Positions 44,962 to 47,806 of a DNA stretch of 64,000 bases are shown here, piece by piece. The translations under genes and the position numbers were made by a program. Origin of the DNA: a virus; the IMG/VR virus record IMGVR_UViG_3300015202_000003, positions 21,413 through 85,412 of that record; one strand, 5' to 3'. The stretch's first letter is position 1. Every line of letters starts with the position of its first letter. The notes beneath the pieces are model-generated. The model had not been told where the DNA came from. It was given only the letters and a program-made list of their open reading frames with translations, and did not search any database.

Positions 44962-46173
44962 ATGAGTTTTTATTCAGATAACCAATACAATCCACAACCC
45001 GTTTATTACGAAGATTTAAACAAAAAAGAAAAGGAGAAGAAGTTCTCTTGGAAAAGAGTTTTAGGTTTTTTCTTTAAATTAAATCTCACTCTGTTCTCAT
45101 TTTTTATTTTGTGGTTTTGGTGGGGCACAGTTCCTCATCCCAAAATTTTACTTCGTAAAAAAACAAACTCTAATCAGATTTTAAATTTGAATTTAAAATC
45201 CTCTTTCATAAAGAAAAGCGGAAAGAAGAAAACCAGATTCAAATTCAAATTTATGGCTAACAACATCATCGTCTCCGGCGCCGGAACTGCCTCCGCCAAC
45301 GGCACATATACGCCCAATACTGCTAACTTGGCATCTCCTGCCAGAAATATTCCGCTCTTTGCAATGGCGGGCGGTGCCAACTTCTACCTATACGATTACT
45401 CGGCAGGCACAAGTGGAGCTGGAGCTTGTGCGTGGGCAGTGGGGCCAGATTCTACAAACGCAAACAGATGGTATGGGACTTCCACTTATTACTCGTCTTT
45501 TGCGGCTGCGCTTACAGCAGGGCCACAGGCGTCTACTTACACAGTCGTCGCTGGCACCGCTCCCGTTCCTACCGTCATATCGCAAGCCGCAGGACCAACT
45601 GGAAATGAATCTGGGCCTTCAAATGTTTCTAATGCAACTCCTCAAGTTCCGCTTCCCGGTGCCCCAACTTCGCTTACGGCAGCTTTTGCTTTAGCAATGG
45701 TTACTGGAAACCCAATTGCTCCAACTGCTAACTTAGCATGGGTAGCTCCTTCTGGGGGTCAAGCCGCAACTTCATACAATGTTCATAGAGGGACAACTGT
45801 AGGAGGCGAAAATACAACGCCTTTAGCAACTGGAATTACGGGTTTAACTTATACAGATACAACTCCCTTAAACGCAACAACATATTTTTATGTAGTGGAC
45901 GCGGTAGACGCTGCGGGAGAGGGTATTGCTTCTAACGAAGTGGGTATTAAAACGGCAACTCTACCTCCAACAACCTTAGCTGTTACTGGTTCAAACGGCT
46001 CTGCTTCTCTTTTGTGGACGGGAGCAACTGGAGCTATTAACTATAATGTAAAACGTTCTTTAAGCGCGGGCGGAACATTTACAACAATAGCTACGGTTGC
46101 TACAACAACCTATACTGATACATCTGTAACAAACGGCACAACCTATTACTACGAAGTCACGGCTTTGGATTAA
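44962..46173 (+). CDS. Membrane-anchored FN3-repeat surface protein A; last FN3 lacks its final strand
   Basis: N-terminal TM; internal MANNIIVSGAG domain; W...Y.V.R...YTD...YFY.V.AV FN3 patterns; ends YYYEVTALD. Confidence 0.75.
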   Translation: MSFYSDNQYNPQPVYYEDLNKKEKEKKFSWKRVLGFFFKLNLTLFSFFILWFWWGTVPHPKILLRKKTNSNQILNLNLKSSFIKKSGKKKTRFKFKFMANNIIVSGAGTASANGTYTPNTANLASPARNIPLFAMAGGANFYLYDYSAGTSGAGACAWAVGPDSTNANRWYGTSTYYSSFAAALTAGPQASTYTVVAGTAPVPTVISQAAGPTGNESGPSNVSNATPQVPLPGAPTSLTAAFALAMVTGNPIAPTANLAWVAPSGGQAATSYNVHRGTTVGGENTTPLATGITGLTYTDTTPLNATTYFYVVDAVDAAGEGIASNEVGIKTATLPPTTLAVTGSNGSASLLWTGATGAINYNVKRSLSAGGTFTTIATVATTTYTDTSVTNGTTYYYEVTALD

Positions 46174-46199
46174 GGTTTATTAGTTTGATGAGAGAAATT

Positions 46200-46235
46200 A
46201 AAAAGAGAGGTTTTCAAAAAAACCTCTCTTTTTTT
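46200..46235 (+). terminator. Terminator between the two FN3 genes
   Basis: aaaaagagaggttt / aaacctctcttttt followed by Ts. Confidence 0.8.
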
Positions 46236-46255
46236 ACAGTTTTTTTATTAGTTTA

Positions 46256-47386
46256 ATGAGAGAAAGTAAAAAGAGTAGAAATTTAATTAAAGTCGGAGTA
46301 GGTTTATTTTTAGGGTTGGGGTTTTTAAAAGATATTTTTTATTTTCCTTCATCTCGTTCTTTACCTTCTTCCATATCAAAACCTTTACCTACTTCTTCTC
46401 CGGAAAAGTTAAAAAACTATAAAGAAATAGATAAGTGGTTAAAGGAAACCAGTAAGAAGAGAGGACGTAAAAAATTTAAGGAAAGAAGAAAACCAGATTC
46501 AAATTTAAAATTTATGGCTAACAACATCATCGTAAGCGGCGCAGGAACTGCCTCCGCCAACGGAACATACACGCCCAATACTGCTAACTTGGCGTCTCCT
46601 ACTCCCTTCACCCCGATGTATGCAATGGCGAGCGGTGCGTGCTTATATGTGTTTAGTCCCAGCGCTGGATATTTTTTCTGGGCGTTTGGCACCTCCACCG
46701 CAGCCATCTCCGGCAACACCGCCGGGTTGTATACCTCAGGCTTTTCTTGGACCACTCTCGCCGCCGCTATCGCAGCAGGGCCACAAGGATTAACATACGT
46801 AGTATCTTCTGGCACCGCTCCCGTCCCTACCGTCACCCAAGCCGCTGCCGCAACGGTTCCCAACTCTCCTACAAATTTAACAATAGTTTCAACATTTGGT
46901 TTAGTTACTGGAAATTCAAATGCTCCTATTATAAATTTAACATGGGTAGCTCCTGCTTCGGGGTCTACGGTTGTTTCATATTCAATTTTTAGAGGGACAA
47001 CTACGGGAGGAGAATCAGCAACACCTTTAGCAACGGGTGTAACGGGTTTAACATATTCTGACACTACAGTAAATAATAACACGACATATTTTTACACGGC
47101 TCAAGCGGTTAATTCGGGCGGGAACTCGGTTTCTTCTAATGAAGCCACAATTAAATCTGTCACAATTCCGCCTTCTGTTTTAGTAGCTGTAAAAGGAAAT
47201 ACAATTATAAATTTAACATGGACGGGTTCAACGGGAGCTTCTTCTTATAACATAAAAAGGTCAACAACATCTTCAACGGGGCCATTTACGTTTATAACAA
47301 GTGTTCCCAACACTCAAACAATATATTCGGATACGGGTTTAACTAACGGTCAAATTTATTATTATCAAGTAACGGCTTCGGATTAG
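46256..47386 (+). CDS. Membrane-anchored FN3-repeat surface protein B; last FN3 lacks its final strand
   Basis: N-terminal hydrophobic anchor; same MANNIIVSGAGTASANGTYTPNTANLASP block; ends YYYQVTASD. Confidence 0.75.
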   Translation: MRESKKSRNLIKVGVGLFLGLGFLKDIFYFPSSRSLPSSISKPLPTSSPEKLKNYKEIDKWLKETSKKRGRKKFKERRKPDSNLKFMANNIIVSGAGTASANGTYTPNTANLASPTPFTPMYAMASGACLYVFSPSAGYFFWAFGTSTAAISGNTAGLYTSGFSWTTLAAAIAAGPQGLTYVVSSGTAPVPTVTQAAAATVPNSPTNLTIVSTFGLVTGNSNAPIINLTWVAPASGSTVVSYSIFRGTTTGGESATPLATGVTGLTYSDTTVNNNTTYFYTAQAVNSGGNSVSSNEATIKSVTIPPSVLVAVKGNTIINLTWTGSTGASSYNIKRSTTSSTGPFTFITSVPNTQTIYSDTGLTNGQIYYYQVTASD

Positions 47387-47423
47387 ATTTAAGAATTAAA
47401 AAATAAATCATTAGTTATCTATT

Positions 47424-47720
47424 ATGGATTTTATACCTGTTGAATCTTCTCCTTCTAATGTTGTCTCTGTTACTCCTTTTGACAACCCTGTAATTCTTCC
47501 TCCTGTCATTCTTTCTAATGATACGATTTATAATTTTACGAAGTTGAATGTAGAATTTAAAACTCCGATTGAATTTAACCTTATAAATTTTAATTTTAAT
47601 ATGTCGGGTGAGATTAGGTTTAATATAACGAATCCACAAAACGGAATTAGCATAGATGCCCCTGTAATTTCTAACGTTTCTTTTTCCCCTACAATTACAA
47701 CACCTGTTTCTAATTTATAG
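47424..47720 (+). CDS. Small beta-rich protein starting with an FN3 G-strand-like segment
   Basis: MDFIPVESSPSNVVSVTP; continues the truncated FN3 of 46256-47386. Confidence 0.65.
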   Translation: MDFIPVESSPSNVVSVTPFDNPVILPPVILSNDTIYNFTKLNVEFKTPIEFNLINFNFNMSGEIRFNITNPQNGISIDAPVISNVSFSPTITTPVSNL

Positions 47721-47769: not shown

Positions 47770-47806
47770 AAAAAACCTTTTAGATTAAATTTCTAAAAGG
47801 TTTTTT
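47770..47806 (+). terminator. Terminator
   Basis: aaaaaaccttttaga / tctaaaaggtttttt. Confidence 0.8.

Follow-up and report, generated by a model that had tools for sequence, protein, structure and literature searches.

Why do two neighbouring phage genes, here called A and B, both stop within their last fibronectin type III (FN3) domain, before its final strand G, and why does the open reading frame (ORF) behind B, ORF C, open with just such a strand? The three genes lie in a window of 64,000 nucleotides, the whole stretch of DNA that was analysed, which corresponds to bases 21413-85412 of the 198,095-bp IMG/VR virus record IMGVR_UViG_3300015202_000003 (G000 for the whole record; estimated completeness, 88%). 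The phage genome has ~31% G+C and carries almost all of its genes on the + strand. The answer that we prefer, with a probability of roughly 0.5, is that the cut-short FN3 domains would be completed by strand complementation in trans and used as a docking joint.

A and B are paralogs. Their cores, which start at internal Met codons at 45253 and 46514 (MANNIIVSGAGTASANGTYTP...), are 50-55% identical and consist of an N-domain of ~110 residues ahead of two FN3 domains. In our own FN3 profile (96 positions, built from 79 related domains), the first FN3 domain of each protein aligns up to position 95-96 of 96 with 92-95 bits, and the second aligns up to position 77 in both with 46-52 bits, so that the proposal of the first-pass annotation, that both proteins break off at one and the same point of their last FN3 domain, is borne out. 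The reading frames end in ...TTYYYEVTALD and TAA (46171-46173) for A and in ...QIYYYQVTASD and TAG (47384-47386) for B, and the break falls directly behind the Tyr-corner F strand. Alignments to Pfam fn3 (PF00041, 84 positions, gathering score 25 bits) end at position 69 for A and 68 for B; the score of B (25.0 bits) equals the cut-off and that of A (18.9 bits) lies below it. Searched by fold, the AlphaFold2 (AF2) model of A matches tandem FN3 structures at E 1e-7, for example titin and lambda gpJ (PDB 8iyk, 8k35). By profile and by predicted fold, then, the C-terminal repeats of A and B are FN3 domains, the last of which is incomplete. The coordinates of these and the other features are collected in Table 1.

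The missing part is found at the start of ORF C (MDFIPVESSPSNVVSVTP, i.e. MDFIPV-ESSPSNVVSVTP), as had also been proposed. Joined to the second FN3 domain of B, ESSPSNVVSVTP carries the alignment on from profile position 77 to 94, a gain of 7.5 bits; over the donor peptides joined to cut-short domains, the alignment extends from 77 to 93-95 with gains of 4-11 bits. When the N-termini of the genome's ATG-started ORFs with 60 or more codons, 282 in all, are joined to the cut-short FN3 of B, that of C scores best against the FN3 profile. The motif is specific: run over the six frames of the 198-kb genome, a loose pattern gave five matches, four of them meaningful, namely C, a spare copy within A, and two proteins outside the window that we call D and E. 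The consensus of the donor element is E-S-x-P-S-N-V-x-x-x-T-P, followed by a Pro-rich linker. Because A and B are the sole FN3 proteins of the 198-kb genome in a profile search, these orphan strands have no other home. Elsewhere, a donor-peptide pattern search led to two other viral contigs from IMG/VR (L013, 1368-1402; L015, 4884-4918), in which ESSPSNVVYFTP, nearly the donor peptide, serves in cis as strand G of an intact, Cys-rich FN3-like domain; two further matches are due to chance. Since the peptide is an ordinary cis G strand in the intact domains of these two contigs, its nature as a G-strand element is confirmed.

The only outside member of the family, P0002, bears on the age of the split. 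It is encoded on a 3.5-kb GC-rich Logan contig (L001) and shares 48% identity with B and 63% with A. A stop codon lies shortly ahead of its initiator Met, which matches that of the A and B cores, and its sequence ends in ...YFYFVTSLD-TAG in the same alignment column as A and B (profile coverage to 77 of 96), the cut in all three proteins falling at the Asp behind Y-x-Y-x-V-T. Five nucleotides after the P0002 stop begins a further ORF, C' (137 aa), with MTESLPSNVVSATP, of which residues 3-14 are the strand. The first-pass annotation had asked whether the truncation point is kept in homologs and had allowed that these might always be contiguous genes, implying recent breakage; the same Asp is used in the sole outside homolog, and P0002 is split too, with its strand on the next ORF, the opposite of contiguity. 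Because the cut is at the same codon in lineages ~50% diverged, the split is, as far as sequence comparison goes, a single old event. By direct reading, the strands of C and C' are identical at 10 of 12 residues and differ in 11 of 12 codons; beyond the strand and a short 'PPxIL' segment (residues 7-30 of C, 3-23 of C'), BLASTP finds no similarity between the two ORFs. With the peptide nearly invariant while the rest of its ORF was replaced, selection appears to act on the donor peptide itself. Protein searches with the B core and the A N-domain gave no useful member beyond P0002, and scans of viral, metagenome and genome contigs with the family alignment gave none either, two metagenome matches being generic FN3 repeats. 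A degenerate DNA pattern for the cut-short FN3 end returned only three chance matches, and nothing resembling the A-B-C region was found in GenBank phages, tblastn included.

The spare strand that the first-pass annotation had seen before the first FN3 domain of A, ESGPSNVSNATP, is confirmed in its place and recurs in P0002 as ESAPSNTASATP, with 8 of 12 residues kept and Pro-rich linkers on both sides. B is cleanly without it (an 18-residue gap in the alignment). Joined to the cut-short FN3 of A itself, the spare strand adds 6.7 bits as a G strand in the FN3 profile. The proposed division of roles, with B as acceptor only, A as donor and acceptor and C as donor only, holds at the level of sequence; P0002 would share the double role of A, and C' and E would be donors only.

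Behind A there is no donor ORF, only a terminator, and its intact, conserved cut-short FN3 without an adjacent donor makes sense if donors encoded elsewhere serve A. Two candidates, D and E, lie in a gene row with PHROG matches to baseplate hub/lysozyme, PAAR and baseplate wedge. Protein E (G000 180931-181809, 292 aa) starts with MTESPSSNVAHTTP / MTESPSSNVAHTTPQLPL, residues 3-14 being the strand; the DNA upstream offers no possible start codon, and E is not preceded by an FN3 gene. A structure search gives template modelling (TM) scores of 0.48-0.64 to Tail_P2_I and baseplate-wedge clusters over residues 24-292; the strand lies ahead of this aligned region and so has the appearance of an N-terminal extension. 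An ESM Atlas feature search gives a score of 0.90 to a cluster with Tail_P2_I in 15% of its members; homologs of E were not found. E is located ~5 kb downstream of a gp25-like wedge gene, in the module that also contains the hub and PAAR genes, and ~3 kb past a 502-aa ORF that is an unconfirmed candidate for a baseplate-J equivalent. As a lead from the structure and feature searches, E is a probable P2-gpI-like baseplate wedge protein. The same module encodes a PAAR-like spike-tip protein (L007 5450-5704) and a gp5-like hub, and because of these two genes the sequence points to a contractile-tail phage. The first-pass annotation had suggested a strand-swapping fibre or adaptor system; a donor at the N-terminus of a probable baseplate protein fits the adaptor part, and the polymerisation of a fibre remains speculation.

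In protein D (G000 178539-179021, 160 aa), an exact copy of ESSPSNVVSVTP is internal, at residues 117-128. The peptide DNA of D and C is identical at 34 of 36 nt, both differences being synonymous, and the likeness continues for ~25 residues. The AF2 model of D, with a predicted local distance difference test (pLDDT) of 36, is too poor to judge the role of the motif. D and the next protein (637 aa) both end in ...CVRIG-stop and share a TGTGT-AGAATAGG motif that occurs nowhere else in the genome (L007 9004-9021 and 10899-10916; G000 179004 and 180899). Judged by its sequence, the CVRIG tail may give the baseplate module a further short tail for docking or assembly.

With the truncation, the presence, position and conservation of the donors and their genomic placement observed, we propose a mechanism in which the last FN3 domain of A and B would be made without strand G, so that strand F has a free edge and the core is partly exposed. 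A short donor element on other proteins would then supply strand G in trans, either from the N-terminus of C or from that of E, and possibly from internal sites in D and in A itself. C would be co-transcribed with B: the two look like one two-gene transcription unit because a terminator-like hairpin follows C. A scan for sigma-70 promoters did no better than on shuffled sequence. The donor peptide would lie beside strand F, complete the FN3 sandwich and join both proteins, and this would be how the variable N-terminal head domains of A and B are plugged onto the baseplate or onto other partners, and how they are swapped as cassettes. The cytoplasm would be the probable site of assembly. We infer that the strand binds, that donors and acceptors pair as described and that A and B are associated with the virion. 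Provided that there is binding, we think it likely that A or B docks on the baseplate protein E; chain formation via the spare strand of A is speculative.

Multimer structure prediction had been put forward as a check. An ESMFold2 complex of the second FN3 domain of B with residues 1-45 of C gave an interaction prediction score from aligned errors (ipSAE) of 0.34, against 0.01 for the best of three controls, although a pass of 0.60 or less is more likely to be false than true unless the complex was likely beforehand. In calibration, 51 of 78 solved complexes scored at or above the mark, as did 2 of 108 mismatches. The B-C runs had a contact agreement of at least 92% and a partner pLDDT of 51, with no interface reported. 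This prediction is weak support and adds little. A pilus-like elaboration, in which the strand of E would capture the open FN3 of A, the strand of A would capture the next A or B, and B would cap the chain to give short, exchangeable non-covalent fibrils whose variable head domains could pass from phage to phage as gene cassettes, seems to us rather unlikely. On the same reading, and with as little confidence, part of the host-recognition apparatus would be built so, with C either as one more plug-in module or as a strand 'chaperone' of B, to be displaced during assembly.

Several observations weigh against complementation in trans. The conservation argument comes from one independent comparison in a family of three members. 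The B-C pass may reflect the model's memory of intact FN3 domains, and in the AF2 monomer of A the cut-short FN3 is folded with confidence though no partner is present (pLDDT 77-91), the spare strand being neither placed in a domain nor paired (pLDDT ~26). The assignment of E to the baseplate comes without a match to the hidden Markov model of Tail_P2_I (PF09684), and the motif in D may, on weak profile hints, be the cis G strand of a diverged Ig-like domain of D itself, after an 18-residue insert. Compartment is a further point. The cores of A and B stand in frame behind AT-rich extensions of 97 codons (44962-45252) and 86 codons (46256-46513), which are mutually unrelated; each has a membrane-anchor-like hydrophobic segment (...VLGFFFKLNLTLFSFFILWFWWG... 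in A, ...LIKVGVGLFLGLGFL... in B) and a Lys/Arg-rich linker, and open frames that long are unlikely to have arisen by chance in DNA of 27% G+C. Should the long forms be produced and exported, acceptors and signal-less donors would end up in different compartments, and if only exported forms exist, the two would not meet before lysis. P0002 is without such an extension. Just before the core ATG, ~30 nt of DNA are common to A and B, in frames that differ between the two by direct reading.

What else could have produced this arrangement? The split may be a tolerated relic of shuffling, a possibility that we take seriously while holding it doubtful: an ancestral protein of the order N-domain-FN3-FN3-linker-head would have been cut once in the FG loop, both daughters having survived, the cut-short FN3 being a passive spacer and the peptides on C, C', D and E being ordinary leading or linker strands, or recombination joints, that do not bind. 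This would suit the Pro-rich 'PPxIL' segment behind the donor element, which resembles a normal FN3-FN3 junction, the occurrence of this peptide as strand G in cis on the two IMG/VR contigs, the placement of the spare strand of A exactly where a domain junction is expected, the repeat scar behind the A stop and the confident AF2 fold of the cut-short domain alone; the 34/36-nt identity between C and D could likewise be a recent recombination joint. However, the cut is old, being at the same codon in lineages ~50% diverged, and neither half has decayed. As in other Ig-like folds such as pilins, an FN3 domain without strand G exposes hydrophobic core, which also counts against a passive spacer. 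The 12-residue peptide, with 10 of 12 residues kept through 11 changed codons, is far better conserved than the rest of C and C', and debris does not predict a strand at the very N-terminus of E, before an unrelated fold and with no FN3 gene upstream. Of the plainer alternative in the first-pass annotation, recent breakage therefore falls with the old shared cut, and domain-shuffling debris survives in the form of a long-tolerated relic.

Two further explanations would dispense with donors on other genes, and we consider both very improbable. B and C could be one protein made by translational bypassing, the ribosome leaving GAT at 47381-47383 before the TAG and landing on GAT at 47427-47429 with 46 nt skipped; on L001 a 5-nt hop would lead from GAT-TAG (2959-2964) to the overlapping GAT at 2964-2966, and the product would be a B-C fusion with a contiguous FN3, perhaps made beside a short form. 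At both loci GAT is indeed followed by TAG, and another GAT stands in frame with the downstream ORF shortly ahead of the strand, codon matches whose joint chance we roughly estimate at ~0.5%. Yet a take-off hairpin is absent, RNA structure at the junction being no better than that of shuffled sequence in the phage (-4.5 kcal/mol, z +0.97) or on L001 (-9.3 kcal/mol, z +0.06), the gap lengths are unrelated (46 and 5 nt) with opposite frame shifts, and an ATG of its own stands 2-6 codons ahead of the strand in each downstream ORF. A, moreover, ends in GAT-TAA and a terminator with no landing ORF, and the strand at the N-terminus of E, without an FN3 gene upstream, needs use in trans anyway. Among cruder ways of joining B to C, reassignment of the stop codon was rejected, as reading through TAG adds only two residues before TAA; a simple +1 or -1 frameshift meets stops in the way; and an intein or intron does not fit gaps of just 46 and 5 nt in which intein motifs are absent. 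The other explanation, to which we give slightly less credence still, is that complementation occurs only in cis or between copies of the same protein, A and P0002 filling their own FN3 with the spare strand within the chain or head to tail. The conservation of the spare strand between A and P0002, its Pro-rich linkers and its gain in bits on A's own domain speak for it. But B has the same truncation and no spare strand, P0002 has both a spare strand and a downstream donor, and the AF2 monomer left the spare strand undocked, a weak point given the 3-sequence alignment. Complementation in trans, by donors on C, E and possibly others, remains the reading that we favour.

The surroundings of A, B and C add some detail. 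The B-C junction is reproduced without any difference in an independent Logan assembly of the source metagenome. The G+C content is 55-60% in the N-domains, against ~27% in the flanks. The N-domain has no match to a Pfam family and no detectable relation to FN3 (hhalign probability 0.4%), an ESM Atlas search with it was uninformative, and in the AF2 monomer of the A core (3-sequence alignment) it has, like the spare strand, a pLDDT under 50. Over their first ~87 nt (45253-45340 and 46514-46601), the two cores are ~91% identical, and all eight differences are synonymous; against 50-55% identity for the proteins overall, this suggests gene conversion or very strong constraint on the first 29 residues. 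A direct repeat of ~33 nt lies on both sides of the A terminator (46181-46212 and 46237-46270), and a degenerate copy of the B start (ttattagtttGatgagagaaaT...) follows the A stop, which by its sequence looks like the scar of a tandem duplication. A short Logan contig from the source sample joins 45230 to 46495, skipping 1264 nt, with 3 other letters between (depth 12); the join stems either from a variant in the population that has a single hybrid cassette or from a crossing of the assembly graph at the 5' ends of the two paralogs. For ORF C, no convincing homolog was found, the sole outside match being driven by repeats (E 4.6e-8). Residues 40-87 of C (47541-47684) match weakly, over 9 repeats, the starts of FctA/Spy0128-like isopeptide domains, the partner in this match being a 1342-aa surface protein of Gram-positive type; the likeness is probably compositional.

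Table 1. Positions, in the window, of genes A, B and C, their FN3 domains, G-strand peptides and transcript signals
Feature	Position	Strand	Details
Gene A	44962..46173	+	403 aa as long ORF; conserved core from ATG 45253 (MANNIIVSG...); N-domain of unknown fold, spare G-like strand, complete FN3, FN3 without strand G
Spare G-strand-like peptide of A, ESGPSNVSNATP	45607..45642	+	between N-domain and first FN3 of A
First FN3 of A, complete	45685..45960	+	own G strand EGIASNEVGIK; profile 7-95 of 96, 91.6 bits
Second FN3 of A	45973..46170	+	ends after strand F (...YYYEVTALD); profile 8-77 of 96; AF2 pLDDT 77-91
Intrinsic terminator after A	46200..46233	.	hairpin with flanking A and T runs; -29.8 kcal/mol, z -5.07
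Gene B	46256..47386	+	376 aa as long ORF; conserved core from ATG 46514; N-domain, complete FN3, FN3 without strand G; spare strand absent
Second FN3 of B	47183..47383	+	ends after strand F (...YYYQVTASD); profile 10-77 of 96; then TAG 47384-47386
B-C spacer	47387..47423	+	37 nt; TAA 47390-47392 in B frame; TAA 47397-47399 and TAG 47412-47414 in C frame
ORF C	47424..47720	+	98 aa; donor strand at residues 7-18, then Pro/Val/Ile-rich linker and orphan body
Donor peptide ESSPSNVVSVTP	47442..47477	+	missing FG-loop end and G strand
Terminator-like hairpin after C	47770..47806	.	direct reading

Known systems offer partial parallels. Chaperone-usher pili such as Pap and Fim reportedly assemble by donor-strand complementation and exchange. 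The same strand principle is found in type V pili, TasA fibres and archaeal threads (review PMC10903470). As in chaperone-usher pili, the phage system would have an Ig-like sandwich without its C-terminal G strand and a strand from the short N-terminal extension of a partner, and the split of roles is alike, with B as acceptor only (as a tip adhesin is), A as donor and acceptor and C and E as donors only. Unlike in the pili, the fold is FN3, the proteins are encoded by a tailed phage, and the donors sit on unrelated proteins that include a probable baseplate protein. No match to a PapD-like chaperone (PF00345) was found in the 198-kb genome at E <= 0.1, the usher family not having been searched separately; by analogy, the A/B/C system may follow the same principle without being a member of the chaperone-usher family.

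Ig-like domains are said to be often added to phage structural proteins, sometimes by programmed frameshift or recoding, and in SPP1 gp17.1* an Ig-like/FN3 domain is attached in cis to a phage structural protein. The FN3 domains described here resemble such additions as accessory modules on phage tail parts, with the lambda tail-tip protein among the top fold matches of A, but differ from them, which are whole domains on one chain, in that the domain is split over two genes and no slippery site or supporting RNA structure is present. T4 gene 60, reportedly expressed by translational bypassing, is like the B-C junction in its matching take-off and landing codons, a stop right behind the take-off and a gap of ~50 nt (46 nt here), and unlike it in that the phage locus lacks a take-off hairpin, has a downstream ORF with its own start, a 5-nt gap in the homolog and a strand on an unlinked gene. 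Among engineered split domains are SpyTag/SpyCatcher (a split CnaB2) and the FN3 fragment complementation of the Koide laboratory, in which, as proposed for A and B, a terminal β-strand peptide rebuilds a cut-short Ig-like domain and acts as a connector. Those systems are man-made, and SpyTag forms an isopeptide bond, in contrast to the phage system, which gives no sign of a covalent link. Full-text searches of the literature returned no description of trans-split FN3 domains in phages.

If strand complementation in trans is the right reading, this virus would hold a natural, chaperone-free 'tag and catcher', in which a 12-residue N-terminal peptide fastens an FN3-tipped module to unrelated proteins, the baseplate among them. 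Such a compact non-covalent connector could serve protein engineering. Donor-strand complementation, hitherto characteristic of surface filaments in bacteria and archaea, would be extended to the assembly of phage virions, and it would explain how receptor-binding or decoration modules can be swapped as small cassettes while the baseplate is left as it is.

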